Virus genome (UHGV): UHGV-0038492
From: a virus
Length of the DNA stretch: 64,000 nucleotides
Direction: 5' to 3' (one strand)
The notes under the pieces are model-generated. The model did no database searches and was not told the origin of the DNA. It saw nothing but the letters and a program-made list of their open reading frames with translations. The first letter of the stretch is position 1, and every line of letters starts with the position of its first letter. Positions 3,760 to 17,488 of the stretch are shown here, piece by piece. The position numbers were made by a program, and so were the translations under genes.

Positions 3760-6700
3760 TTAATCGCGAATGATTACCGCCTGCACTTTATTGTTGGTGT
3801 CGATAAACGACATTACGCGCTCCTTGTTAAGATAAGGAGGTATCGGTAACGCAGCGTAATCCGCCAGGTTGTTATTAAACTCGGTTGCCACTAGCGCATT
3901 AAGCGTTTCGGGGTCTGAGCTTGTCCCGGCCAATTCCATAACACGTACACGATTTAACGAGGAGTAGTTGCTGATATAATCCAACAGCGTACCGTAGAGT
4001 TTATTCCCGGTTATGCTGTCCGCCGTAGAGCGGATATTGGCACGCACTTCGTCCTCATAAAGTCCCCCTAATCCGTAGTAAATAGGGGTGTACGGATCGT
4101 TAACGATAGGCGCGAGGTTGAACCCGGTTAAACGGTCGGTCAGCGAGATTTTCTGCGTAGTACCACCTGCCGCCGTACAGCTTACGTATTTATCTGCCGC
4201 AGACAAATACACCACAATGGTGTAAACAGTACCTGCTAAGGTCAGCGTTGCGTTAAACGTTAATTCGTTATTCGCACCACGCGTGTGGGTAAATGACACG
4301 TCAGGTTGTAACGTACTCCACGGTGCTGGGGTAACACGTTTGGTCGGCGTGAAGCCTAACACCACAGATCTCCCGTTACCGAAGTTTAAACCAAACCCGG
4401 CGTAACAATACTCACCGTTACTGTCGGTTAAACGATAACCACGGGTGATAAGTAACGACAATCGCATAAACTCGTCATCGGTATTTTTCCAGCAACCCAG
4501 GACGGTTTCTAGCACCGTACCGGTTTTTGCGTTGCTTTCGGTTTCCCAACTGACACGCATCCCCGCATTGTTAAATACCGGGAACAGGTTGTGGATAAAT
4601 CCGTGAACGTTATCACTTACCCCTTTCGCATCAAACACCCACTTCGACGCAAGCTGGTCGTATTTCACACCATCGAGTGCTTTATATTCGTCACCAACCA
4701 CATAACGCCAGTCTGCTTCGCCACGCGCAACCGCTTGAAGTCCAGAAGCCCAGCAGGGCGCACCTACTGTTAAATTGCTTAACCCCAGCACTGCGCGCGA
4801 AGCAGAACGCTGAATGTGTGCGTTGTCATTGGCGATGTGGTCTTTCAGCTCACGGAAATCACCTAACCGTGTCACGTTACGTAGTTCAGTAACGAACACT
4901 TCAGAAAGGTCGTTAATACCGATCAGCCCCACGCGCGTCATGGTATCCGTTTCAGCCTGACTGTAGCTGTCGTGAATAATGTACTTCGCTTTGTTATCGA
5001 CAATGTCAACAAAAATCCCTGCGTAAACTTCCTTATTCAGATTTGGGAAACGTTCAGTGACGTTAACCGACATCAACGGCACGTCGTACGTTTCACCGCC
5101 AATGAAATACGTGGAAGCAGGAAGTGTCACCAGGATATTGTCTTTAACCGTAACGTCGATTAAGTCGTTACCGGACTTACCAAAGCGAATAATGTCAACG
5201 CGCGCACCCGAGTCAACCCCGCCGACGGTGTTCTCCAAATTTTCAATCTGGGAAGTCTGCGCCATCACCACACTACTATCGAGTGCTAAAGTGGCATCAT
5301 CCACATCCAGACCGAATTTAATCAGACCCCGTTTCGTGGTGTCTGCGTTTTCAACACCGAACACAGAAGACGGGTGTTGGTGAACCTTCGGTGAGTATTT
5401 GTCTAACTCAGTCTGTTGTGCAACAGAAATCGGCAGGTCGAGGTCCGGGGTATTCGCAACGTTACCTAAACCAAAGGTAATTTTGTCGATAGTGACCGAA
5501 CTGGTAAGCTGCATCTCGTTGATGTACGACTTGGCAGCAACCAACTTACCGGTAAACTCTGCGTCCAGTTTTTCAATTAGCGCAGGAGTCGCCGCGAGGT
5601 TTTCAGCCGTACCAAACTCGTCAGTCAACTGCCAACATGCTAACGTCGTGACGTCATTGGCAACCGGAAGGATAAACGTTGCGACAAACGGCGATGCTTT
5701 AATCCCGCTACCCGTAAGTTCCACGGTAGACGTCGACGCACCGTAGAACAGTCCTGTACCGCCTGCGGTATTACCCGGCAAATACGGCCCGACCGTAGTG
5801 GGGTCTAAGAGCTTCTTACCACGCCACAACAGTCCACGGTCATCGGGGTATAGCACAAGCTGGTTACCGCCTGCTTGTAACGTAACAGGGTTATTACCCA
5901 CGTTAACATCGGTGGAGCCTTGACCAATGAACTTAATGGATTTCGGATCAACGACGAACTGGGCACCTAAACGTTTTTCGTCAACTACACCAGGGGCCTT
6001 TTTGATGGTGACGTAGTTTCTGCTGTGGGAAGACTGGATACTGACCCTATCTGCAACGTTATTGATAAATCTCTTGAAGTGATAACGGTTTTCCAGTGCT
6101 TCTAACTCGGCATCCATGTTGTCGAAATTGACACGCGCACTGTAGGTTTTCCCGTTTACCGTAACGATAACGTCAAAAAGATTACCGGTTCGTTTCATCT
6201 GGAAACGTAACGTGAAATCACCATCAGGTATCACCGGGTCGGGTGCTTTGGAGATATAACGGACTTGTGGTACTGTACCGACGCCATATCCGCTAAGCGA
6301 CACTTCGATAGAAAGGCTATTCCCCCAGAGTGAGCCCTCCAACTCGACAAACTTACCAGAGTCGGTGCCCGGATTCTCGTAGAATCGCATCTGTACCGCA
6401 CCGACCGGTGAGTTATCTCCTGCAACTCTTGTACCCGTTACAATAAAGTCGATATCTTGTAAATCAGCGGGAACGCCGTTAAAATAACATCCGAATCCGT
6501 TTCTAGTTCCGCTGTAGCGAAGCGCCCCGTGGTATCTAATTCCGTCCGAAACGTAATATTCGCTAAAATACTGACTAACGTATTTCGACATCGACACAGG
6601 GTCGACTTCGGTAGTAAATGACGTAAAGCCAGGAAGCGTCGTAATCGTGCCGTTAGCGTTCTTGCTCGCCGATTCACGAAGCAGTTTTCTCTGGGCGGTT

Positions 6701-8085
6701 AGCGTTGCCTGTGTTGGGTATTTAGCGTTAACGTAGTCCGTTAACTGTTGCTTGGTTTTCCCGTAGGTTAACGCTGCATCGGACGCAATGCCGTTTAACT
6801 CTAACGCACGAATCGGACCCCAGGTGTCAGCGTGTGGGTTGTCTTTACGAGTGACGTGTTCGTGCGCAGGTGCGTTACGATAGAGCTGTTCTACTAACTG
6901 ATGGTACTTAACGATTAGCTGATAAACGTCATTACTTACGTCAGCTTCTGGCGCACCAGGTAACGCAAGGAATTGTGCATAATCGTTTTCAGCCGCCCAC
7001 CAGTTTAAGTTAACGTTGGTTTTGTATTTCAGCCACTTCGCAACATCCGTTTTGGTGTAACCTGCTGAGAATTCGTCTGGCGGTGTGTCAACGTTAAAGG
7101 TGTAGTCCATGGACTGTTTGTTGGTCGTCACCTCGATAACGTATACACCGTTACCCGGTTGACGGACAACGCTAAACGTTAACTCGCCTTTTAATTCGTC
7201 GTCGGTCAAACCGTTGATTAACGTATAATCGTAATCGGTCGAACCACTGCCTAACGCAACGGTCAGACGTAGGAAGATCTTACGTTGTTTTAATTGGAGA
7301 CGAAGGATACTTGCACCACCATTCGCGTAGCACAGCATCCAATCGATTTGTTCGTTCGGGTTAATACTCCCCATGTTCGGAAAAATAGCCGGGATACGGT
7401 ATTTCATCGACAGGGAATATTCATTTAACGTGGTGGTTTTGTACGTAACGGAGAAACGACGTTTAGCGGTATTGTAGGTATACCCACCTTTGTTGTCGTA
7501 CGTTGCGTACTGTTCAGACGTGATAACCGTACCATTAGCACGATGTTCGATATCTAACGTGTTACGCGCAATCGGGTCTACCCGATTCACCACGTTACCT
7601 AACGAATCACCTAAGCCCGCAATGGCCTGCATTAATTCCAGTTCGCCTTTCCAGTTTTCCCAGTCGAACTGAATGTCGACCGGTGGAAAGTAAACATCGC
7701 CGATAACGGTATCCCATTGACACGCAGACGGGTATTTATCTTTATTGAGTTCGCGTTCTGCGGTAATCTGTTCTTGGGTCGCTTCACCACAACCTACGGC
7801 GTGGTAATCTACCGTGAAATTCGATTTGTATTTGTCGTTAACAATCCAAATCATCCCGTGCACGAGATAGGCTGTGCGCAACATACCGGTCTCGTACGGG
7901 TGTGTAATAACGTAATCGTCGCCTAAGGTCAGTATTTTGCCGCCGCTCTTGACCACCAGGGATGTGGTGAAAAAAGGGGCGTGGGCAGGTACCAACATTC
8001 GGTACTTCGTACCAATGACGGCGACCGCTTCACCGGTTATTTTATTCCCCGGTTCTTTGAAGTGTGGGTCTAGGACGACAGCCAT
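3760..8085 (-). CDS. large virion structural protein (1441 aa), putative tail fibre / tail spike component
   Basis: Complete 1441-aa ORF in track; its stop lies 14 nt upstream of the start of the downstream tail-fibre gene (same strand); function inferred from size and neighbourhood only. Confidence 0.75.
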   Translation of the reverse strand: MAVVLDPHFKEPGNKITGEAVAVIGTKYRMLVPAHAPFFTTSLVVKSGGKILTLGDDYVITHPYETGMLRTAYLVHGMIWIVNDKYKSNFTVDYHAVGCGEATQEQITAERELNKDKYPSACQWDTVIGDVYFPPVDIQFDWENWKGELELMQAIAGLGDSLGNVVNRVDPIARNTLDIEHRANGTVITSEQYATYDNKGGYTYNTAKRRFSVTYKTTTLNEYSLSMKYRIPAIFPNMGSINPNEQIDWMLCYANGGASILRLQLKQRKIFLRLTVALGSGSTDYDYTLINGLTDDELKGELTFSVVRQPGNGVYVIEVTTNKQSMDYTFNVDTPPDEFSAGYTKTDVAKWLKYKTNVNLNWWAAENDYAQFLALPGAPEADVSNDVYQLIVKYHQLVEQLYRNAPAHEHVTRKDNPHADTWGPIRALELNGIASDAALTYGKTKQQLTDYVNAKYPTQATLTAQRKLLRESASKNANGTITTLPGFTSFTTEVDPVSMSKYVSQYFSEYYVSDGIRYHGALRYSGTRNGFGCYFNGVPADLQDIDFIVTGTRVAGDNSPVGAVQMRFYENPGTDSGKFVELEGSLWGNSLSIEVSLSGYGVGTVPQVRYISKAPDPVIPDGDFTLRFQMKRTGNLFDVIVTVNGKTYSARVNFDNMDAELEALENRYHFKRFINNVADRVSIQSSHSRNYVTIKKAPGVVDEKRLGAQFVVDPKSIKFIGQGSTDVNVGNNPVTLQAGGNQLVLYPDDRGLLWRGKKLLDPTTVGPYLPGNTAGGTGLFYGASTSTVELTGSGIKASPFVATFILPVANDVTTLACWQLTDEFGTAENLAATPALIEKLDAEFTGKLVAAKSYINEMQLTSSVTIDKITFGLGNVANTPDLDLPISVAQQTELDKYSPKVHQHPSSVFGVENADTTKRGLIKFGLDVDDATLALDSSVVMAQTSQIENLENTVGGVDSGARVDIIRFGKSGNDLIDVTVKDNILVTLPASTYFIGGETYDVPLMSVNVTERFPNLNKEVYAGIFVDIVDNKAKYIIHDSYSQAETDTMTRVGLIGINDLSEVFVTELRNVTRLGDFRELKDHIANDNAHIQRSASRAVLGLSNLTVGAPCWASGLQAVARGEADWRYVVGDEYKALDGVKYDQLASKWVFDAKGVSDNVHGFIHNLFPVFNNAGMRVSWETESNAKTGTVLETVLGCWKNTDDEFMRLSLLITRGYRLTDSNGEYCYAGFGLNFGNGRSVVLGFTPTKRVTPAPWSTLQPDVSFTHTRGANNELTFNATLTLAGTVYTIVVYLSAADKYVSCTAAGGTTQKISLTDRLTGFNLAPIVNDPYTPIYYGLGGLYEDEVRANIRSTADSITGNKLYGTLLDYISNYSSLNRVRVMELAGTSSDPETLNALVATEFNNNLADYAALPIPPYLNKERVMSFIDTNNKVQAVIIRD

Positions 8086-8152
8086 TATCTACTCCTATAG
8101 TCCGTGGGCGTCGAGTTCATACTATGACTTGAATCTATTGAGGAAAAGAGCT

Positions 8153-9415
8153 GTGACTACTGCTTATCAAGTGCGGCCTGACAGCGCTTTTGGCTTCTCT
8201 CGTGAGACCCGTACCTGGGGAGCCATCGACGTCACGCAACCCTTAGAAACCTTGTGTTCTGATTACCATATTTTCGAAGTCGGTCTGAGTGCGCTTGGTA
8301 GAGACTATACGTTAATTAGCCAATATCACCTCGCTGACTTACAAAACCGTACCGATACATTACAAGACTGGCTGAATGAAAAAGCCGGTGTGGTTATCTC
8401 TGCATTAAAAGACGGTTTACCGACGTTAGAGTTTGATTGGGCACACTACCAATCGATTAATGCCGACGTTCCAGTAGAAACCTACCTGTGTCCTCCCGGT
8501 TATCATTACAGTCAAGATTTCAGTACAGACGATGCTGACGACGTTGTGGTGGTGTGTGAAGATAAATGGAAAGACAAATACCGTAACGGGGTGTTGTACA
8601 ACATCAACGGACAGTGGGTGCCGCATCAATCCGATACTGTTGGCGTACGTTTACCGGGTGCGGGTAAGATAGTACGTCGTGCGGGGACACCGGATATCGG
8701 GTGTATGGTCTTTAGTAAATTGGGGAATGTTAAGACGTACCCCATTGCTAATTTGACCTTAAACAAACTCGACACCACCCGTGACTATTATTCCACGTTA
8801 ATGATTTCTTTACCGGAATCTATTACAGATAAAACCGTGGGGTTTGTTATCGGGGGACTGATACACTGGTTACCGGTTACTGGGTACTTCTCCGACAAAG
8901 CCATTATGGTGTCGCTACCGAACTTTGACGTTGCGCGTACTGTGTTAGAAACCCGACGTTATTACGACTGGGACAGCATTGGTGTGGGTGATTTGTCATC
9001 ACCGACCAACGTACAGCGTATCCGTAACCCAGAAACGTTAAAGGCGCTTTTAACCCACGAGTCGTCGTTTATCTTTACGGTGGATAATCCGTATCTGGAA
9101 GAAGAAGTTGTGGGGGTTTCTCACAACGCTATCTGGGGACGTTTATACCTTAAAGATCCTACCGACCCTGATGGGGAAAAACAACTGGGGTATCTGTTAA
9201 ACCGCTTCGGTAAAACCGTTGCCTATTGGCCGACGTGGGAAGAAGGGGAATGGGTATTTAACACCACGGAGTTTGACAGTCAAAACTACGTGTTCCGTGA
9301 AGCCCGTTGGTATAACCAGAAGAAAATTAACGATGCACAGGCAATCGTAGGGCCTTTCGGTCCCTGGGAAAAAGTCTATTTAGAAATGCATCGTTTCCGT
9401 GCAAGAAAAAAATAA
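8153..9415 (+). CDS. hypothetical protein (about 420 aa)
   Basis: Track ORF 7937-9415 trimmed to the first start codon clear of the divergent minus gene: GTG at 8153 preceded by GAGGAAAAGAG (alternative TTG at 8138); followed by a hairpin terminator. Confidence 0.6.
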   Translation: MTTAYQVRPDSAFGFSRETRTWGAIDVTQPLETLCSDYHIFEVGLSALGRDYTLISQYHLADLQNRTDTLQDWLNEKAGVVISALKDGLPTLEFDWAHYQSINADVPVETYLCPPGYHYSQDFSTDDADDVVVVCEDKWKDKYRNGVLYNINGQWVPHQSDTVGVRLPGAGKIVRRAGTPDIGCMVFSKLGNVKTYPIANLTLNKLDTTRDYYSTLMISLPESITDKTVGFVIGGLIHWLPVTGYFSDKAIMVSLPNFDVARTVLETRRYYDWDSIGVGDLSSPTNVQRIRNPETLKALLTHESSFIFTVDNPYLEEEVVGVSHNAIWGRLYLKDPTDPDGEKQLGYLLNRFGKTVAYWPTWEEGEWVFNTTEFDSQNYVFREARWYNQKKINDAQAIVGPFGPWEKVYLEMHRFRARKK

Positions 9416-9465: not shown

Positions 9466-9675
9466 TTAGTCTTTTTTGTAGACGATCGCGTTACCGTGCA
9501 GTTTGTTGTTACCGGAAATACCGATAACTTTAAACGCTTCACCGCCGATCTTTTCAGCTTCGACAGCCAGCTTAGCAGTAACGTCGTCTACGGTGTCACC
9601 GAAAGCACTTACGTTACCAATTTTCTTGAACTCTTCAGGAATGTGTTCAGCAGAAGAGAATTCTTTAATAGCCAT
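9466..9675 (-). CDS. DUF1471 (YhcN / BhsA-like) domain protein, 69 aa, no signal peptide
   Basis: C-terminal FKVIGISGNNKLHGNAIVYKK matches the conserved end of enterobacterial DUF1471 proteins (BhsA-like ...TLHGTAVIYK, recalled from memory); N-terminus is hydrophilic with no hydrophobic leader. Confidence 0.6.
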   Translation of the reverse strand: MAIKEFSSAEHIPEEFKKIGNVSAFGDTVDDVTAKLAVEAEKIGGEAFKVIGISGNNKLHGNAIVYKKD

Positions 9676-9875: not shown

Positions 9876-10841
9876 TTAGCGCGGGCCTGAAGTTGGACCA
9901 TGTACACCGTCGTGGATGTGTACGCTGAAGGTAATACCGGAAATCACCGCATCCTTAACTGTAAAGACGCCCACACCTTCACCCGTACCACCGTATTTGA
10001 AGTTCTTAGCAACTTCCAAATTACCGGTGAACATCGCCTCATTACCTTCTTGCTTAAAGTTCGGCGTTTTATACGTTGTGGAACCAGAGGCTTCGGTTAG
10101 CCACGTTTCTGTTTTAAAGGTAACCGATTTCGACGCTTCGGTATTCCGAACTTCGCATTTCTCATTAATCGTTTTCGTTTCCAGGTTAATCGAACGTTTT
10201 GCGTAAATGAACGCATCTTCTTTGTTGATGTTCACCTTCGAAAGCATCGCGTTCTCAAAACCTAGATCGTCTTCCACCGAGTTAATGTAATACTTATTCC
10301 CTTTATGGTCAACGCACTGCCACGATCCGTTAGCGTTATCGAATTGGAATAACCACGCCGCTTTCTCCCCGTTCACCATGCTTGTTCTTAGGGTAACGTG
10401 TTTGTCAATCGTTGAGACGTTTAACACATACGCGTTCGACAAGTCATCCGCCATCTGGTTTTCAGGGTCAGCAGACCACGCGTAAACCGCATCCTCTAAT
10501 CGCTTAACGTTAGCGAAATTCAAATCAATCCAAAAATAAATATCGGTTTGCCCTAGACGTAGCAAGATAACGTAATCTTCACGCTTAACGTCTGGGGAAT
10601 TAATTCGGTTGGAATTAAACTTCCACCACTTTGCAGTAATCGTGTTACCGGTTTTAATCGTTAGGTTGTCGGTAGCACCCCCGGCTTCGTGTACCTTTTC
10701 AGCGGTTGAGGAAACCGATTGTACAACGGTAGGGTTCGCAAAGTTGGTTTCAATGGGAATAACACTCACCCGATCCGTACCACGAGGTTTATCTTCCGCG
10801 ACGATACCAATCGAGAAAAAGTCAACGCTGGATTTCTCCAT
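9876..10841 (-). CDS. hypothetical protein (321 aa)
   Basis: Track ORF; minus-strand ATG preceded by AAGGAA with 7-nt spacer. Confidence 0.65.
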   Translation of the reverse strand: MEKSSVDFFSIGIVAEDKPRGTDRVSVIPIETNFANPTVVQSVSSTAEKVHEAGGATDNLTIKTGNTITAKWWKFNSNRINSPDVKREDYVILLRLGQTDIYFWIDLNFANVKRLEDAVYAWSADPENQMADDLSNAYVLNVSTIDKHVTLRTSMVNGEKAAWLFQFDNANGSWQCVDHKGNKYYINSVEDDLGFENAMLSKVNINKEDAFIYAKRSINLETKTINEKCEVRNTEASKSVTFKTETWLTEASGSTTYKTPNFKQEGNEAMFTGNLEVAKNFKYGGTGEGVGVFTVKDAVISGITFSVHIHDGVHGPTSGPR

Positions 10842-10895
10842 TAGGTCGTTCCTTAGATCGGAAATGTAATCAGATATATTTTACTTAAGTGAATA

Positions 10896-10920
10896 GGGGC
10901 TGAACTCGCACTTCAGCCCC
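10896..10920. other. 9-bp stem-loop (GGGGCTGAA / TTCAGCCCC) in the divergent intergenic region
   Basis: Perfect 9-bp inverted repeat 10896-10904 / 10912-10920 with 7-nt loop; no adjacent T-run, so more likely a regulatory or processing structure than a terminator. Confidence 0.4.
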
Positions 10921-10973
10921 TATGGGCACGTTTCTTTCGAAACGGAGTTACCACGTGATTAGGAGACAGACCA

Positions 10974-11051
10974 ATGTCTACTGAGAAGAAAAGCGGATTG
11001 AACGAAGTAATCGTACTGTTCAAACGCGACAACCCGGCTATTCCTCGGTAA
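10974..11051 (+). CDS. small ORF (25 aa, MSTEKKSGLNEVIVLFKRDNPAIPR)
   Basis: ATG 10974 preceded by AGGAGA with 7-nt spacer; too short for the track; real-gene status uncertain. Confidence 0.2.
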   Translation: MSTEKKSGLNEVIVLFKRDNPAIPR

Positions 11052-11229
11052 TCATAGTATTACTTAAAATTTACAGATTATCCCTTTATTCTGCTACTCG
11101 GGATACCGGTAGGGGGTAGGGGGCAATATGTATACGGATATAAATAGCGGAGGTATACGTAGTATACCGACATACTCTTCCCAGAGGAACGTAGTGACTT
11201 CCTTATTCCTTTTTAGGAGAATAAACCCC

Positions 11230-11964
11230 ATGAGAGAATTGATTGACGATATCTTTACCAATACCAGTTTAGAACTTTCTTCTACGGTGGTTAACGATCT
11301 AATAGGACAACCGTATCCTGCTAAGTTAATGTCAGTCGGTACCATTAAACCTGAAGATTATCCAGACAATGACATTATCGACTGTATAATTGACGAATAC
11401 ACGATAGCCAGTTACGCCAGTCGGGTCTTCTTTGTTCTTAATAGCGAAACCAGTGTCATTTTAATCTATAAGTTGATTAGTGGTGCTGAACTTGAAGTTG
11501 TAGCCGACCACATTCGTCTTATTGCGAGCACGATTGATGATTTCGCTGATGCGCTTTTTGGAGACAGTTGGCCTTTGCAACCCCTCTTCTCTTACTTCCC
11601 TCTATTTAAACATGGAATAGGGTTAATCCGACATGCAGAAAACCTTCCCGATAACGTAGAGCTATCGCTGCTTGGACCCGGCATCGATCTTTATCCATTA
11701 GAAGACGAGGGCACGCTATATGGTTTGCGCATTTATGTTTCTGTGTTAGAGGGATACCGCGTTATTGAATTGATTGCATCAGATTTAGCAAAACAGATCC
11801 CTGAAGCAGAAACGATTTCTAAAGCCACCCACCTGGTTGAGTTTAACCCAGCCGATCCGTTATTAAAATATCACAAAGAAATTGACATTCGTAAAATCGC
11901 CACGGTAAGAGGGTGGGGTTGTGTTGAGATTACGAATAATAACCTGTTACTAGTACGTAAGTAA
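11230..11964 (+). CDS. hypothetical protein; divergent member of the GW...LLF C-terminal-module paralogue family
   Basis: Track ORF 11128-11964 trimmed to ATG 11230 preceded by AGGAGAATAAA; C-terminus IATVRGWGCVEITNNNLLLVRK aligns with the module of the next three genes. Confidence 0.6.
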   Translation: MRELIDDIFTNTSLELSSTVVNDLIGQPYPAKLMSVGTIKPEDYPDNDIIDCIIDEYTIASYASRVFFVLNSETSVILIYKLISGAELEVVADHIRLIASTIDDFADALFGDSWPLQPLFSYFPLFKHGIGLIRHAENLPDNVELSLLGPGIDLYPLEDEGTLYGLRIYVSVLEGYRVIELIASDLAKQIPEAETISKATHLVEFNPADPLLKYHKEIDIRKIATVRGWGCVEITNNNLLLVRK

Positions 11965-11987
11965 AAAACCTAAAAGGAGAATATACC

Positions 11988-12542
11988 ATGTTTCAAACTG
12001 AACTGAAAAATGAAATTATCCAATCCCTTGAAAAAGGCGTAGGCGAACATTTCTTTGTCTGTCCTTATACTGTACTGACCAATACCATTATTCAGCCAGG
12101 CGCGATGATAGTAGGGGTGAGTGTACAAGCTGTGGAGGAAACCCCGCTGCGTCGCAACATCACTCGTAAAAACCATATTCCATTTAGAACGGGTTTTACA
12201 GATTACTTTCAGAGCTTACTGAAAGATAGCGTTTGGAAAACAGGTAGTTTCTTCCACGAAGGGAAAACATCCACGCTGGTTTATAAAGAGAATACCAAGT
12301 ATCTGGTTGATTTTCTCTTAGCGCGTCAATACGCTTTCTTTCCTTCACCCACCGGTCTCACCCCAGACAATCCGAGTAAGCTGTTAAACCAAGACGAAGC
12401 CGAAGCACTGCGTGCACAACTAAGAAAAGAAGGTTGTGATGTCGATGACTGGGAAACGTTGATCGCAGTCGCTAAAGCACACGGTTGGTATACCGTGCGT
12501 AATCTCGGTCAGCAATTGTTGTTCTTAGCTTACCCTGCTTAA
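11988..12542 (+). CDS. hypothetical protein (184 aa); GW...QLLF module family
   Basis: Track ORF; RBS AAAGGAGAA; C-terminus IAVAKAHGWYTVRNLGQQLLFLAYPA. Confidence 0.75.
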   Translation: MFQTELKNEIIQSLEKGVGEHFFVCPYTVLTNTIIQPGAMIVGVSVQAVEETPLRRNITRKNHIPFRTGFTDYFQSLLKDSVWKTGSFFHEGKTSTLVYKENTKYLVDFLLARQYAFFPSPTGLTPDNPSKLLNQDEAEALRAQLRKEGCDVDDWETLIAVAKAHGWYTVRNLGQQLLFLAYPA

Positions 12543-12571
12543 GTAACGAAAAACCCTAAAGGAGAGTAAAG

Positions 12572-13723
12572 ATGCGAAATATTATTTCTAAACCAGGACA
12601 TGCCAAGATCCTAAAAGAACTGATGGACAGATGCTATAATCAGACTTGGCCTCTGCCAAGCTTAACCATCGAGTCTTCATTACAACGCGAGTTGTTTGGT
12701 TATAACTTGGGCTGCTGTGTACTGAGTGAATACGATGAGATTATCGCGCCTGTCGATGTTTGTACTTACGATGAAGAAATTGAAGGTTACCAGTTCGCGG
12801 TTTACTCAAATTGTGGACTAAATTACCGTAAACTCGTTGTTAGAGAAAAGAGTAGCGGCAGGAAGATTATGTTTAAGGTCTTCCCAAGTGGTAAAGTCAG
12901 CAATTTATGTTTTCAGCTTGAGCAAGTGCCGTTTCACGGTGCAGCTATTTTAACTAAAGCAGAACGTGCGTTATTAAGCGGGTTAATCGGCTTTGAAGCA
13001 AAAACCATCAAAGTAGAACAGGAACTCACACAAAACGATTTCGGCTCGACCTGGTACGAAAGTTTCTTCCGCTACGAAATATTAAGTGATAAAGCTATCA
13101 AACTCACTTACCGTTCTACCGACGATCTCGTTTACCATATTTTAGTTAGCGGTGAACCCCACCTGATTATTGAAGACAAAGGAGAAAATCAAATGTCTGC
13201 CTTAAAAGACGAATTAGCCCAATTCATTCGTGATGTTGAAGAGAAAAGCAAGAGCGATCACATTTTCTCACAACGTTATCCTGAACTTATTGACGAAACC
13301 ACCGATAGTGTCGTCGACGGTATACGCATTTTCCCAAGTGGTCTTGCAATTTACCGACTGCCTAGCGTTAACCAGCTTAAAGTCATGGAAATGCTAAAAG
13401 ACGTTTTAGCAGAAGCGGGTTGGGAATATCGCTTCGATTGCAATTTCGAAGGGATGGCGTTATTCGTTACAAAGAAAAATTATACGTTGTCAATCGATCT
13501 ACCTAAAAGTCAATATTACAGTTTCTTCCCGAAAGCGGATGACCGCACTGAAAAAGAACCTGCATTGTTACTTGATGCGGCAGAATCCAATACGCTAATG
13601 ATGCGTCTGCGGATGGTTGACAAAAAATTAAATACCGGTCATCTAACGACGATCGGTAAAGATTACGGTTGGAAATCTGTCGAACCGTACGGCAGTCAGC
13701 TGCTGTTTGTTGCTGACCTTTAA
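12572..13723 (+). CDS. hypothetical protein (383 aa); GW...QLLF module family
   Basis: Track ORF; RBS AAAGGAGAG; C-terminus TTIGKDYGWKSVEPYGSQLLFVADL plus a degenerate internal copy (LAEAGWEYRFDCNFEGMALFV). Confidence 0.75.
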   Translation: MRNIISKPGHAKILKELMDRCYNQTWPLPSLTIESSLQRELFGYNLGCCVLSEYDEIIAPVDVCTYDEEIEGYQFAVYSNCGLNYRKLVVREKSSGRKIMFKVFPSGKVSNLCFQLEQVPFHGAAILTKAERALLSGLIGFEAKTIKVEQELTQNDFGSTWYESFFRYEILSDKAIKLTYRSTDDLVYHILVSGEPHLIIEDKGENQMSALKDELAQFIRDVEEKSKSDHIFSQRYPELIDETTDSVVDGIRIFPSGLAIYRLPSVNQLKVMEMLKDVLAEAGWEYRFDCNFEGMALFVTKKNYTLSIDLPKSQYYSFFPKADDRTEKEPALLLDAAESNTLMMRLRMVDKKLNTGHLTTIGKDYGWKSVEPYGSQLLFVADL

Positions 13724-13749
13724 TAAGTGAAACTACACTTTCTCTAACT

Positions 13750-13775
13750 GCCGCGCTTTAGTCGCGGCTTTTGTT
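13750..13775 (+). terminator. intrinsic terminator (GCCGCG / CGCGGC stem + TTTTGTT)
   Basis: 6-bp GC stem 13750-13755 / 13763-13768, 7-nt loop, T-rich tail; between genes ending 13723 and starting 13791. Confidence 0.55.
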
Positions 13776-13790
13776 AAGAAGGAAATAGAA

Positions 13791-14564
13791 ATGAAAGTCC
13801 AATTAGACGACCTCTTTAAAACTGAACCGTATATGATTAAAGGTTCACTGGCTTCACTGTTGTTAGATGATAGATTTCATCGAACGCTCCAATTACAATC
13901 GGTCGAATCCGCACCAACAGAAGACGCGAGTCTTTATCAACGTATCACTTACACACGCGGAGAATATCGGCGATATAAACCTGATACGCTAACCGTTAAG
14001 CTCTGGCAAGTGGCCACAGGCAAAGTATTAACTTATCGCACTGTTGGTCTATACTACGTTGAACGTGCCTACGCGTGGTTAGAAGAAGTTAAAGAAATGG
14101 ATTACGACCGCTTAAGCAAAAGACTGCGCGATAACAACGCCAGTTTACCGATACGCAATTATTTCTCCACAATTGAAAATAGTCGTTGTTTCGTTTCACG
14201 CGAATCCATGATATTGCCTGGGGCTGATGTTCAGACGACACTAAAAGATGTGGTTGTGAGGAAAATCTTTCATGAATCTGAACACGTTGGATTTCGTATC
14301 TATTTAACGCACAAGAGGCCATTTACCGTGATTCATGTTGTTACCGTACCCGAAGGCTCATCAGTCGTTCGTGAGCTTCCTGACGCACGTGATCGTAGTC
14401 CTAATGAGCCACTTTACTTAATGTCAGGAACAAAATCAGAATCTTTGATGTCCCGTTACAGCATGGTTGATGTTGTTGATACTGCTATGAAGTTAGGTTG
14501 GAAAGAAGTACAGCAGCACGGCAAACAATTGCTGTTTATCGCAGATGTAAATCTCAATAACTAA
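13791..14564 (+). CDS. hypothetical protein (257 aa); GW...QLLF module family
   Basis: Track ORF; RBS AAGAAGGAAA; C-terminus VDTAMKLGWKEVQQHGKQLLFIADVNLNN. Confidence 0.75.
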   Translation: MKVQLDDLFKTEPYMIKGSLASLLLDDRFHRTLQLQSVESAPTEDASLYQRITYTRGEYRRYKPDTLTVKLWQVATGKVLTYRTVGLYYVERAYAWLEEVKEMDYDRLSKRLRDNNASLPIRNYFSTIENSRCFVSRESMILPGADVQTTLKDVVVRKIFHESEHVGFRIYLTHKRPFTVIHVVTVPEGSSVVRELPDARDRSPNEPLYLMSGTKSESLMSRYSMVDVVDTAMKLGWKEVQQHGKQLLFIADVNLNN

Positions 14565-14576
14565 AGAGGTGGTACC

Positions 14577-15155
14577 GTGTACCGATTAATAGAAATGAGA
14601 AAAGACGTTTGGTTGGAAAACCTCGTCGATGGGGAGCTCGAGGGAATAGAGCTTTCCTTACCAGAGAGAGCGGACACGGTATTGGCCTTTCTGGTAAAAC
14701 AGGCAGACCGTGAACCGGTAGGAATCTTCACTGTGGACTATAAAGATCCACGAGGAATTCATTTACGGAACATTTGCAGTGGTTTGGAAAGCTTACCGGC
14801 TAACCCTTTCTTAAACTACGCAAAACGTAAACTCCAACCGGGACAACACCTCTGGGTAACGTTATCGCCTGACGTTAGAATCATACGTGACGATTACTCG
14901 GCGTTTGTACAGGCAACGAAAGTCAGTCTGTATAACCCGAACGCAGAGCGTACCGATATGCCGTTTATAATTACCTTAGAAGACGATGGAACGCAAGAAG
15001 GTATTGAGGCAATTACGGAATTAGTAAACTCTTATCCGGTTGCCACTATCGAGTTAGAAAACCCAAGCCGACTACCGTTGGGTGACCTGCTCGAATGGAT
15101 CGAACTGAATACAGAATTCTTAATCAGTTCGCGTCAGTATCGATTCGATGTATAA
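14577..15155 (+). CDS. hypothetical protein (192 aa)
   Basis: Track ORF, GTG start preceded by AAGAGGTGG; followed by a strong terminator. Confidence 0.7.
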   Translation: MYRLIEMRKDVWLENLVDGELEGIELSLPERADTVLAFLVKQADREPVGIFTVDYKDPRGIHLRNICSGLESLPANPFLNYAKRKLQPGQHLWVTLSPDVRIIRDDYSAFVQATKVSLYNPNAERTDMPFIITLEDDGTQEGIEAITELVNSYPVATIELENPSRLPLGDLLEWIELNTEFLISSRQYRFDV

Positions 15156-15159
15156 CAAC

Positions 15160-15190
15160 GGTGGGGTGTAAGCCCCACCTTTTATTTTTT
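15160..15190 (+). terminator. intrinsic terminator (GGTGGGG / CCCCACC stem + TTTTATTTTTT)
   Basis: 7-bp stem 15160-15166 / 15173-15179, 6-nt loop, immediately followed by a T-run. Confidence 0.8.
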
Positions 15191-15195
15191 GTTCG

Positions 15196-15226
15196 CTGAC
15201 ATTAAAAATAATCTCAGATATATATT
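15196..15226 (+). promoter_or_regulatory. sigma70-like promoter candidate (-35 CTGACA, 17-bp spacer, -10 TATATA; also contains TATATTAC)
   Basis: CTGACA 15196-15201, 17-nt AT-rich spacer, TATATA 15219-15224; lies between the terminator at 15160-15190 and the first gene of the secreted-protein cluster; the polymerase that would use it is unknown. Confidence 0.35.
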
Positions 15227-15284
15227 ACCTAGGGGAGAGTTAAGATTAACTCTTTTACTTGTTAACCCCACGAGGAGCAAAACA

Positions 15285-15746
15285 ATGAAAATCTTCACTT
15301 CCTTTTTAATCGCCCTTTTCGCAATCGGATTCAATACTGCAAACGCTGCAATCAATAGTTGGGAACAATTACTGAACCCAGGTCAGGCTGTTTACGAAAT
15401 TGAAGACATCGCCGGAAACGGACTGTCTATCAACTGTGACACTGAAACTGCGAATCGCAAATTTTACGGTCGGATGGTTTGGTATTACGGGGAACCTGTA
15501 GGCGCAACTAACGCTGAAGATAACACGATGGATATCGTCGTAAATGGCAAAACCTACAACATCCCTACGGTGGATGGTAGTGACAAAGCAGAACACGCTT
15601 GGGTGGCTTTCGTTAATGCTATCGGTAACGCCAAAACTTTCAGTGTGAATATCAATGGTAACGAAGCCGCTAACTTTACCGTAGAAGGCGAACGTCTGTC
15701 TGAAACTTTCTTCCAGAACTGTGGACACACCCGTCCTAACAAATAA
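15285..15746 (+). CDS. small secreted protein 1 (153 aa precursor, Sec signal peptide)
   Basis: Track ORF 15189-15746 trimmed to ATG 15285 preceded by GAGGAG; N-terminus MKIFTSFLIALFAIGFNTANAA is a typical signal peptide; two Cys in the mature part. Confidence 0.7.
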   Translation: MKIFTSFLIALFAIGFNTANAAINSWEQLLNPGQAVYEIEDIAGNGLSINCDTETANRKFYGRMVWYYGEPVGATNAEDNTMDIVVNGKTYNIPTVDGSDKAEHAWVAFVNAIGNAKTFSVNINGNEAANFTVEGERLSETFFQNCGHTRPNK

Positions 15747-15768
15747 GTAATAATCTTTTTTAGAGTGC

Positions 15769-16161
15769 GTGAAAATGAATATCAGAACTATACTTTATAC
15801 CATCATTATTTTCTGTGCAGTCGGTATTACCGGCACTTATGCTTTCGGCGATTCGGACGTCCGCCATTACGAACCGGCTCCTGACTCACCCATTATCAAC
15901 CCGGATGAGTCACCTACGTTAATGCGTAGTTTCGGTAAACTGCAAGTTTATCGCTTAGTGCGTGGTGAAACGTGTACCGGATTACTCATTGCTGACACCC
16001 GTGCACAAGTCTATCAACGTCTGACGGATATCGCCTGCGAACAACCAAAAGTCATGTCGGTCAGTATTCATCCGTTAGAGGTCGGTAACTATACTGCTGT
16101 GGACTTCTTCCATAATGCAGAACTGATTGGCCGTATTACTTTAAATCGTAGCGCTGAATAA
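15769..16161 (+). CDS. small secreted protein 2 (130 aa precursor)
   Basis: Track ORF, GTG start; hydrophobic N-terminus ILYTIIIFCAVGITGTYAFG; two Cys in the mature part. Confidence 0.65.
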   Translation: MKMNIRTILYTIIIFCAVGITGTYAFGDSDVRHYEPAPDSPIINPDESPTLMRSFGKLQVYRLVRGETCTGLLIADTRAQVYQRLTDIACEQPKVMSVSIHPLEVGNYTAVDFFHNAELIGRITLNRSAE

Positions 16162-16179
16162 TTTAATGGAGAATTTACA

Positions 16180-16662
16180 ATGAAACGTTTACATACCCTG
16201 ATGTTCTTCGTGGCTATTCTGTTCACAGGCTTTACCTTTAACGCAGAAGCGGCTACCGTAAAACAAGCACTTAGCTGTAACCCGGAAGCCTGGGCTGAAC
16301 AACCTGGTGCGTGTCCTGATATCAATACGCTCTATACCGACGATGCTACTTATAAAGCCGCAATCGATAAAGCGTTGAAACCTGTCGGACTGGACGGAAT
16401 GTTCGGTAAAGATGGTGTGATGGATGGTCCTGGCAGTGATGTTATTCCTGTGAAAATCAACGGCAAAGTCTGGCTTGAAGCTACTGGTTGTAAAAGCAAC
16501 GCCTGTGGCTGGGAATATATCACAACGCTTTATAACCCGCAGACCCATGTCGTGGTAGGTTACTATTACAACGTCGACCCAGGTTACCTGGTTTGGTTCG
16601 GCGATATCGGCGTTAATGAATTCGCTTATCTGGTTAAGAAATACGTAGCTACGGTTAATTAA
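16180..16662 (+). CDS. small secreted protein 3 (160 aa precursor) with an Ivy-like C-K-x3-C loop
   Basis: Signal peptide MKRLHTLMFFVAILFTGFTFNAEA; mature part has GCKSNACGWEY, same Cys spacing as the CKPHDC loop of Ivy-family periplasmic inhibitors but without the His. Confidence 0.7.
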   Translation: MKRLHTLMFFVAILFTGFTFNAEAATVKQALSCNPEAWAEQPGACPDINTLYTDDATYKAAIDKALKPVGLDGMFGKDGVMDGPGSDVIPVKINGKVWLEATGCKSNACGWEYITTLYNPQTHVVVGYYYNVDPGYLVWFGDIGVNEFAYLVKKYVATVN

Positions 16663-16677
16663 TTTAAGGAGTCTATC

Positions 16678-17088
16678 ATGAAAACGTTTATCAAAACTTT
16701 ACTCGTTGCTGTAACTGTTCTGTTCTCTCTTAACGTGGCAGCAAAAACAGTAAAACTACCGGCGGGTATCAAATACGTCAACAGTACCGATGAATTCTAC
16801 TGCACAGAAATTGACGGTCTGTATTGCCAGACAAAGAATTTGTTTGAATACAAAGGTAACAGATATGTTTTCGTTGTTGAGCAAGGCGGTGCCTGGTGCT
16901 ACGACAGCCCTATGTCGGTACTCAACCTGGAAACTTGGAAAGCACAGAAAATTGAATACAAAGATAACCAACTGTGCTCAGGCGAAAACAAACCGTTCTT
17001 CAAAATCAAAAATGGTGTGCCGACTGTAGGTGTTATCGACACCTCTGGAGCACCAATCGTTGTAGCTCAGGACAAACTTAAAATCTAA
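16678..17088 (+). CDS. small secreted protein 4 (136 aa precursor)
   Basis: RBS AAGGAG; signal peptide MKTFIKTLLVAVTVLFSLNVAA; four Cys in the mature part. Confidence 0.7.
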   Translation: MKTFIKTLLVAVTVLFSLNVAAKTVKLPAGIKYVNSTDEFYCTEIDGLYCQTKNLFEYKGNRYVFVVEQGGAWCYDSPMSVLNLETWKAQKIEYKDNQLCSGENKPFFKIKNGVPTVGVIDTSGAPIVVAQDKLKI

Positions 17089-17098
17089 GGAGTAAACC

Positions 17099-17488
17099 AT
17101 GCGTCTTATCTGCGCTTTGTTGGCGTTTTTCTCAATCGGAGTTATGGCTTCTACACACATCGACGATTTATTACTTACCCCGGCAACGAACACAGACTAT
17201 CACTACAACCCACCGGGTTTTGAAGTCTGCGAAGGTGATGCAGGCGAATGCCAAGAAGTTGGCGCAGATGGACGCTATATACTCGTAAAAGCAGACGGCG
17301 GGACAACCTGCCCTGCGGGTTATTATTTCGTACTTGACTCTGTAGCAAAAGAGGTGCTTCCTGTAACGACCAAAACGTGTGACCCCACAGTTGTACTAAC
17401 GCTTGCGAAAAGCAAATCACGTGACCGTCATCTTATCGTCATCGAAGAACGCGGTGAGATGCTAGGTGCTATTGAATTAGATTACTGA
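17099..17488 (+). CDS. small secreted protein 5 (129 aa precursor)
   Basis: RBS AAGGAG; signal peptide MRLICALLAFFSIGVMAS; five Cys in the mature part. Confidence 0.7.
   Translation: MRLICALLAFFSIGVMASTHIDDLLLTPATNTDYHYNPPGFEVCEGDAGECQEVGADGRYILVKADGGTTCPAGYYFVLDSVAKEVLPVTTKTCDPTVVLTLAKSKSRDRHLIVIEERGEMLGAIELDY

Follow-up and report, generated by a model that had tools for sequence, protein, structure and literature searches.

The DNA analysed here, referred to as the window, is a stretch of 64,000 nucleotides of the virus genome UHGV-0038492 and belongs to an SPN3US/phiEaH2-like jumbo phage of enterobacteria with a genome of ~225 kb. Between positions 11,230 and 14,564, it carries four consecutive open reading frames (ORFs) on the + strand, named A, B, C and D hereafter, that are arranged head to tail with gaps of 23-67 nt. 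An earlier inspection of the letters alone (the original prediction) had described them as tandem relatives of 244, 184, 383 and 257 amino acids (aa), sharing a C-terminal GW-x8-(Q)LLF module on otherwise different bodies. All four genes are present, with C-terminal strings exactly as quoted there, and the locus displays the following features (HMM, hidden Markov model; AF2, AlphaFold2 model).

11230..11964, + strand: gene A, 244 aa; ORF with an AGGAG-type ribosome-binding site and 85 orthologues
11779..11961, + strand: degenerate domain copy, residues 184-244 of A (IPEAETISKATHLVE ... IATVRGWGCVEITNNNLLLV); from the family HMM, hhalign and AF2
11988..12542, + strand: gene B, 184 aa; ORF with an AGGAG-type ribosome-binding site; orthologues P0011, P0012, P0005 and P0006
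12318..12539, + strand: C-terminal domain, residues 111-184 of B; HMM E-value 2.4e-22
12572..13723, + strand: gene C, 383 aa; ORF with an AGGAG-type ribosome-binding site; orthologue P0013
13505..13720, + strand: C-terminal domain, residues 312-383 of C; HMM E-value 1e-20
13750..13768, + strand: terminator-like GC hairpin followed by a T run, between C and D; from a consensus scan
13791..14564, + strand: gene D, 257 aa; ORF with an AGGAG-type ribosome-binding site; orthologues P0024 and P0004
14355..14561, + strand: C-terminal domain, residues 189-257 of D (the copy that was modelled); HMM E-value 3.6e-23 and AF2

The start of A was placed at 11230 rather than at that of a longer ORF beginning at 11128 (278 aa), because 85 out of 85 orthologues are 244-250 aa long.

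The shared unit is a C-terminal domain of about 65-70 residues

Alignment with the syntenic proteins of phages SPN3US, phiEaH2, Phobos and CR5 revealed that the unit common to B, C and D is a C-terminal domain of ~65-70 residues with two conserved blocks. The first has the consensus h-P-D-x2-D-R-[ST]-x-N-[DE]-P-x-Y-L-M-S, while the second, found ~40 residues further on, reads A-K-x2-G-W-x2-V-x3-G-x-Q-L-L-F-h-A and precedes a tail of 2-11 residues. The spacing of the GW-x8-[QN]-LL[FL] motif is the same in A, B, C and D. The shared module is real, as had been proposed, and not a product of chance, but it is a domain rather than a stretch of 22-26 residues. Among 30 diverse members, P9, P19, G48, W49 and G56 are invariant, and L22, V52 and Q58 are conserved in at least 90%. 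The conserved positions are mostly prolines, glycines, tryptophan and hydrophobic residues, together with the polar R14, S/T15, N17 and Q58, and the domain is near-neutral, with a median isoelectric point of 6.4 and a median net charge of -0.5.

That B, C and D are relatives, as originally claimed, was confirmed by BLASTP comparisons among them (E-values of ~1e-10 to 1e-4 over 64-142 aligned residues, in a tiny database) and by HMM comparisons with external homologues (E-values of 1e-20 to 1e-23); A belongs with them as a divergent member (see below). D also matched PHROGs 26772, 33648, 24489 and 18480 (E-values of 2.6e-11, 5.2e-8, 5.2e-6 and 1.1e-3), and C matched 26772 and 33648 through its residues 297-383 (2e-4 and 6e-3), these matches of C and D covering only the C-terminal 60-85 residues of both protein and profile. 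As whole proteins, A and B fell below threshold for these four PHROGs, which were matched by 19-23 of the 30 domain sequences.

The complete genome of a close relative (NZ_CP173450.1 from E. coli 98232, a circular sequence of 221,873 bp that was deposited as a 'plasmid' and is 93.8% identical to the window) was scanned for ORFs in all six frames: four out of 2,302 end in GW-x7-9-ΦΦΦ (ΦΦΦ standing for three hydrophobic residues) at most 12 residues from the stop, and these are the four adjacent genes A, B, C and D. HMM searches found no domain copy beyond A-D in this complete genome and no further copy in the rest of the 64-kb window.

The GW...LLF residues are predicted to end a compact globular domain

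AlphaFold2 was run on residues 189-257 of D with a 30-row family alignment. The resulting model (predicted local distance difference test score, pLDDT, 93.9; predicted template modelling score, pTM, 0.81) has the order β-α-α-β-β, with helices at 2-7, 25-34 and 37-46 and strands at 20-23, 49-55 and 58-63 according to DSSP. Strand β1 (YLMS) is preceded by a conserved loop bracketed by prolines, and strands β2 (GWKEVQQ) and β3 (KQLLFI) are joined by a GK turn. In this model, the GW...LLF stretch is the terminal β-hairpin of a compact globular domain and pairs with the YLM strand into a three-stranded sheet. The QLLF residues are themselves strand β3 (58-63), where 10-residue blocks reach a mean pLDDT of 97-98, and the invariant Trp and the LLF residues are presumably in the domain core. 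The distance from the proline to GW varies from 39 to 75 among family members, with up to ~30 extra residues inserted between the two helices. The original prediction had itself stated that it would be refuted if the motif turned out to be the last strand of a known globular domain: this is essentially the case, the modelled hairpin placing it at the end of a globular domain, although that domain is an undescribed one. All matches obtained for the D domain with Foldseek in BFVD were uncharacterised proteins from jumbo phages of Erwinia, Klebsiella and Salmonella, in some cases with several per phage, such as three from phage Wellington.

Gene A is a divergent member of the family

Most of block 1 is missing from A (IPEAETISKATHLVE), the C-terminus of which reads NLLLV, with NLLL instead of QLLF. 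An HMM built from three sequences matched A with an E-value of 3.7; hhalign of A against the family gave P 6e-4, then P 1.7e-4 and a probability of 49% with a deeper A profile; and the family HMM scored 9.8 bits on residues 170-244 of A (P 3.5e-5 as a single test), a score reached by none of 1000 shuffles. All of these alignments are in register at their C-terminal end. An AF2 model of A, computed from A orthologues alone (pLDDT 86, pTM 0.81), ends with a strand (200-204), two helices (210-214 and 220-226) and two strands (230-235 and 238-242), with GW just before β2. The best BFVD match of this model is A0A1B2IGH2 (E-value 1.8e-3), the same protein that tops the list of the D domain. We concluded that A is a divergent member of the domain family.

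The A and D bodies, once the domain was removed, aligned from end to end over 168 columns (P 3.9e-4 in hhalign, with 21 pairs tested), and the N-termini of both proteins read M-[RK]-x-[LQ]-[IL]-D-D-[IL]-F, so that A is probably a whole-length paralogue of D. No homology signal was detected by hhalign in the other 20 body pairs (P of at least 0.02). The picture of divergent bodies originally given for the whole array thus holds for these pairs, but not for A and D. Gene C had also been credited with a degenerate internal copy of the module. The family HMM matches 17 residues there (C 270-285, KVMEMLKDVLAEAGWE), corresponding to a helix and GW only, and the score of C 1-300 was equalled by 36 out of 1000 shuffles; we consequently did not retain this copy as established. 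As a separate observation, the model of the A body (11230-11778) gave weak Foldseek matches to sliding clamps/PCNA, with probabilities of at most 0.12 and template modelling scores of ~0.1-0.2, which are probably noise, if curious in view of the clamp-type motif considered in the original prediction.

The domain forms a phage family with stand-alone members

A profile search with HMMER, run exhaustively on 1.84 billion representative proteins, identified only 58 representatives at E-values of at most 1e-3, including 17 at 1e-10 or below; a word-indexed search had returned mostly short fragments, so that the family became visible only through the exhaustive one, and a few very long matches with multiple short stretches were disregarded as seemingly spurious. 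A first group consists of proteins that are 184-423 aa long and carry the domain at their extreme C-terminus, with bodies differing widely in length, a second group of stand-alone proteins of 72-152 aa with hardly anything beyond the domain (for example P0030, 72 aa; P0048, 76 aa; P0049, 78 aa; P0042, 84 aa; P0066, 86 aa), and a third of P0062 alone, in which the domain is N-terminal. The domain was shown to be restricted to phages. Stand-alone members are found on large contigs of uncultivated phages (312 kb and 129 kb), amid small ORFs, and one of them is encoded on a contig of 22.7 kb, with an N6/N4 DNA methyltransferase gene on one side and a Bro-N gene on the other, a typical accessory neighbourhood. 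Since stand-alone proteins exist, the domain must fold by itself, and since it occurs as a protein of 72-90 aa, the conserved activity must reside in the domain itself.

Neither single proteins nor profiles gave a match above noise in sequence searches of Pfam, NCBIfam, PADLOC and PDB, and the domain had no sequence-level match to enzyme families. Seven PHROGs carry the domain and all lack a functional annotation, in agreement with the initial impression that no described family is involved. Sub-threshold matches comprised SPOR, DUF6301, HicA, CheZ, PER2, FusC, MtrG and DpdF. The SPOR domain (PF05036) was considered and rejected: B alone among the four matched it, at 14.6 bits for a cut-off of 21 (E-value 0.044), and one out of 10 members matched at an E-value of 0.011. 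A class I S-adenosylmethionine (SAM) methyltransferase was rejected as well, as a Rossmann core with SAM-binding motifs was not found. PGAP and GenBank label all members as hypothetical, and the literature search on SPN3US gp175, the family member of that phage, returned nothing on this protein, every mention of 'gp175' referring to a φKZ protease. So far, the family thus exists in catalogues only in the form of PHROG clusters without annotation and BFVD models without a name, and it has no Pfam or NCBIfam model, no solved relative and no literature. What is new here is one domain spanning seven PHROGs and the stand-alone proteins, together with a hypervariable four-gene island, while accessory families of this modular, multi-copy kind are familiar from large phages.

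The four genes lie in a mosaic and fast-evolving island

A single domain gene is found in each of SPN3US, phiEaH2, Phobos and CR5, in the slot between a baseplate gene and a gp177-like gene. Its products, SPN3US gp175 (SPN3US_0175, 412 aa), phiEaH2 gp097 (223 aa), CR5_165 (364 aa, Cronobacter) and Phobos gp176 (319 aa, Erwinia), which fall into PHROGs 33648, 24489, 26772 and 18480, carry the same C-terminal domain with 35-45% identity over 60-80 residues (HMM E-values of 1e-23 to 1e-26), whereas no relationship could be detected among their N-terminal bodies or between these and the bodies of A-D. There is thus one copy per genome in these phages, compared to four in the window phage. In the window, the array is flanked upstream by the divergent baseplate gene (phrog_3216, 9876-10841) and downstream by gene E (192 aa, phrog_20879, 14577-15155), a homologue of SPN3US gp177 and phiEaH2 gp099 and not of gp176. 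No counterparts of SPN3US gp174 and gp176 (the latter at 6331-6912 of the SPN3US locus) were found in the window, and no gp174 homologue was found in the 388-bp gap upstream of A (10842-11229). What lies between the baseplate gene and the gp177-like gene is thus, as a whole, a variable island with a content that differs by genus.

The order A-B-C-D-E is kept in five other genomes (L006, L012, L013, L014 and NZ_CP173450.1). The flanking genes (baseplate and gp171-like) are 93-99.7% identical between these relatives, with ratios of nonsynonymous to synonymous substitution rates (dN/dS) of 0.01-0.05. Identities are 53-77% for A, 49-91% for B, 72-95% for C and 80-96% for D, with dN/dS values within 0.13-0.49 for all four. 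Genome L012 is a mosaic, with identities of 99.7% for the baseplate gene, 53% for A, 49% for B and again 95% for C and D. In L006, nucleotide similarity is lost over the N-terminal body of B only (about 11993-12396). These comparisons show that A-D are exchanged like cassettes and that the island is mosaic and evolves faster than its flanks. Since dN/dS is below 1, A-D are real genes; since a stop interrupts B in L006 and C consists of two pieces (149 + 214 aa) in L014, they are also dispensable.

Terminator-like hairpins are found 3' of C and of E, in a scan whose counts were no higher than in shuffles. The hairpin between C and D suggests that A-B-C and D-E are separate units, even if the terminator scan does not exceed shuffles. 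A sigma-70 scan also gave counts no higher than in shuffles. Gene E was considered as a conserved partner gene and rejected, the neighbours of stand-alone members on distant contigs being unrelated to E.

The window phage has relatives in bacterial assemblies

The baseplate protein of the window has 73% identity with its counterparts in Erwinia phages phiEaH2 and Stratton, compared to 63-64% with those in SPN3US-type phages. The GenBank phage collection contained no close DNA relative of the window phage: megablast with the array found no match, and neither did tblastn with A. Related or near-identical contigs of 222-227 kb are present in Salmonella, E. coli, Shigella and Enterobacter assemblies, among which NZ_CP134650.1 of Enterobacter ludwigii (222,441 bp) was again deposited as a circular 'plasmid'. 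'Bapsvirus' is a proposed genus of Chimalliviridae with genomes of ~220-249 kb that are syntenic with Seoulvirus and were found in bacterial assemblies (PMC12768965). The window phage appears to fit this genus and thereby the Chimalliviridae lineage, and 'Bapsvirus' phages may persist in a carrier-like state.

The domain may be an interaction module of diversifying accessory proteins

According to published data, SPN3US gp175 has homologues in PhiEaH2 and CR5 and none in φKZ (Thomas et al. 2016, PMC5105663 supplementary tables), and it is not in the list of proteins detected by mass spectrometry in purified virions, which runs ...169, 170, 171, 173, 193... (PMC5105663 supplement). A-D are tandem paralogues that fill the slot of a single gene, that of SPN3US gp175, phiEaH2 gp097, CR5_165 and Phobos gp176. 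Their shared autonomous α/β domain of ~65 residues carries the conserved activity, the N-terminal bodies being interchangeable additions, and we propose that it acts as a protein-protein interaction module for one conserved partner, which may be a host or a phage factor. The proteins would then be non-virion, dispensable and rapidly diversifying accessory proteins of a host-interaction or counter-defence type, and duplication together with cassette exchange of the bodies would diversify what reaches the partner. We give this explanation as a whole a probability of about 0.5. Its protein-binding activity, common partner and host-interaction role are what we infer rather than what we observed: the domain is seen as a protein-binding core because it is neutral, has no signature of an enzyme or of nucleic-acid binding, and conserves mostly structural residues plus a small polar set. 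The common partner suspected from the start may exist, but would be bound through a folded domain.

This architecture is reminiscent of the Bro-N / KilA-N multigene families. In large DNA viruses and phages, these families combine a small conserved domain with variable remainders, in multiple copies and also as stand-alone proteins, within accessory regions. The GW...LLF-domain family shares this architectural logic, and one stand-alone member adjoins a Bro-N gene, but there is no sequence or fold relationship, the present domain being C-terminal, near-neutral and without a sign of DNA binding.

Several observations weigh against the proposed explanation. The dN/dS values are below 1 everywhere, so that positive selection is not demonstrated, and fast evolution with pseudogenes would also fit relaxed constraint. 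In B (L013 and L014) and in C (L013), the domain is less conserved than the body or conserved to the same degree. The membership of A relies on several weak concordant signals and no strong one, and the non-virion status is that of the SPN3US homologue in literature data, not of the window phage. In addition, no PADLOC family was matched, and the early-promoter-like motif TATTACTTAA, present upstream of A, shows no enrichment across the window (9 matches for 6 expected).

The main rival is an oligomerisation module, in which the domain would mediate homo- or hetero-association, for example by its terminal edge strand pairing between copies, with A-D forming one mixed complex of four different bodies without any external common partner. 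The last strand of the terminal β-hairpin could indeed pair with that of another copy, A-D are encoded together in one or two apparent operons, and their conserved residues are mainly structural and hydrophobic. Most related phages have a single copy, however, and stand-alone versions of 72 aa exist, so that hetero-assembly cannot be the ancestral role, even if homo-oligomerisation could be. We consider this rival unlikely.

A more specific form of the proposed interaction-module explanation, which we regard as rather doubtful, is that the domain is dedicated to docking onto one conserved hub, which would be a machine of the phage or else a factor of the host, immune or housekeeping, so that a tandem and recombining set of different N-terminal 'payloads' would sit on one anchor. 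If so, SPN3US-like and 'Bapsvirus' jumbo phages would possess a modular anchor-plus-variable-effector system of their own for counter-defence or takeover, the stand-alone versions of 72-90 aa would be simple blockers of the same hub, and such an anchor to a host or phage hub would be a new modular principle for phage accessory and anti-defence biology. If the anchor reading is wrong, one more domain of unknown function remains, now correctly delimited. Either way, jumbo-phage genomes encode largely hypothetical proteins, of which seven PHROGs and a set of small stand-alone proteins are now merged into one domain family that has a confident predicted fold and no characterised relative, and a compact, hypervariable, dispensable and non-virion island is pinpointed in a lineage frequently present in assemblies of Salmonella, E. 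coli and Shigella.

A small nucleic-acid-binding domain (winged-helix-, R3H- or Smr-like), which would make A-D phage regulators or nucleic-acid-targeting factors, is improbable. Its h-β-α-α-β-β order is the canonical one of winged helices, as far as the order of elements goes, and the likeness extends to the hairpin, which contains Gly, and to the hydrophobic last strand after it; the same β-α-α-β-β order is presumably also that of the N-domain of Phd/YefM antitoxins. Beyond this order, the tight turn, basic recognition surface and structural similarity of a winged helix were not found. Up to ~30 extra residues separate the helices where a helix-turn-helix needs a tight turn, and the domain is neutral to acidic; this near-neutral charge and these insertions argue against a helix-turn-helix DNA-binding role. 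Moreover, no helix-turn-helix, R3H or Smr match was found in Pfam at an E-value of at most 1.

It is very improbable that the domain is a folded targeting or import domain that delivers the bodies to the chimallivirus nucleus or to the capsid, although the phage is of the Chimalliviridae lineage and a conserved module does sit on otherwise different bodies. Nuclear or capsid cargo amounts to dozens of proteins, whereas the 222-kb genome encodes no further protein with the domain; φKZ lacks the family, and gp175 is absent from SPN3US virions. Stand-alone versions would carry no cargo, and the contig of the Bro-N-adjoining member (Dam/XRE/Bro-N) displayed no chimallivirus marker in the 10.7 kb that were read. 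The packaging or compartment signal suggested in the original prediction is unlikely for the same reasons, because a general signal of this kind would be expected on many cargo proteins and across Chimalliviridae.

Tail- or baseplate-associated proteins, or assembly chaperones, that would co-vary with host range are more improbable still. The array does adjoin the baseplate assembly gene (phrog_3216) and genes for large virion proteins, and hypervariability is typical of receptor-binding loci. Nevertheless, gp175 was not detected in SPN3US virions, A and B are swapped next to structural genes that are 93-99.7% conserved, the polarity is the reverse of that seen in fibres, where the anchor at the N-terminus is conserved and the C-terminus varies, and the annotated tail-fibre or receptor-recognising genes lie ~40 kb away in a relative.

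β-sliding-clamp-binding motifs reportedly have the consensus QL[SD]LF described by Dalrymple and colleagues in 2001, and a variant is QLxLxL. A short linear motif of this QLxLF type, or a docking peptide, as first suggested for the array, is hardly credible: QLLF superficially resembles the clamp-binding pentapeptide, with a Q and then Leu and Phe near the C-terminus, but its Q-to-F spacing is i+3 instead of i+4, A has NLLL, the residues are in the buried strand β3 of the domain (modelled with pLDDT >95) rather than in a flexible tail, and ~65 residues are conserved, ~50 of them further upstream and including the block ~40 residues upstream.

Other features around the array

The gap between the baseplate gene and A (10842-11229) contains a GC hairpin at about 10893-10922 and an ORF of 25 aa with a good ribosome-binding site (10975-11052, MSTEKKSGLNEVIVLFKRDNPAIPR); in the L014 relative, a 47-aa gene is called in the corresponding gap. 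Downstream of E, a run of small genes (15189-17488, + strand) encodes products with signal-peptide-like starts, for example MKIFTSFLIALFAIGFNTANA, MKRLHTLMFFVAILFTGFTFNAEA and MKTFIKTLLVAVTVLFSLNVAA. Relatives of the first one match PF27224 (YfjT), and the run resembles a cluster of small secreted or periplasmic proteins in a lytic jumbo phage.

On the other side of the array, a 69-aa DUF1471/YdgH_BhsA-like protein without a signal peptide is encoded between tail and baseplate genes (9466-9675, - strand) and is kept in SPN3US, phiEaH2 and all relatives. Further upstream, an ORF of 492 aa with a TTG start (7937-9415, + strand) overlaps the end of the gene of a 1441-aa virion protein (3760-8085, - strand). 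Its true start is at 8153, because its orthologues are 420 aa long, and the gene starting there is a homologue of SPN3US gp171, an essential tail-associated gene.

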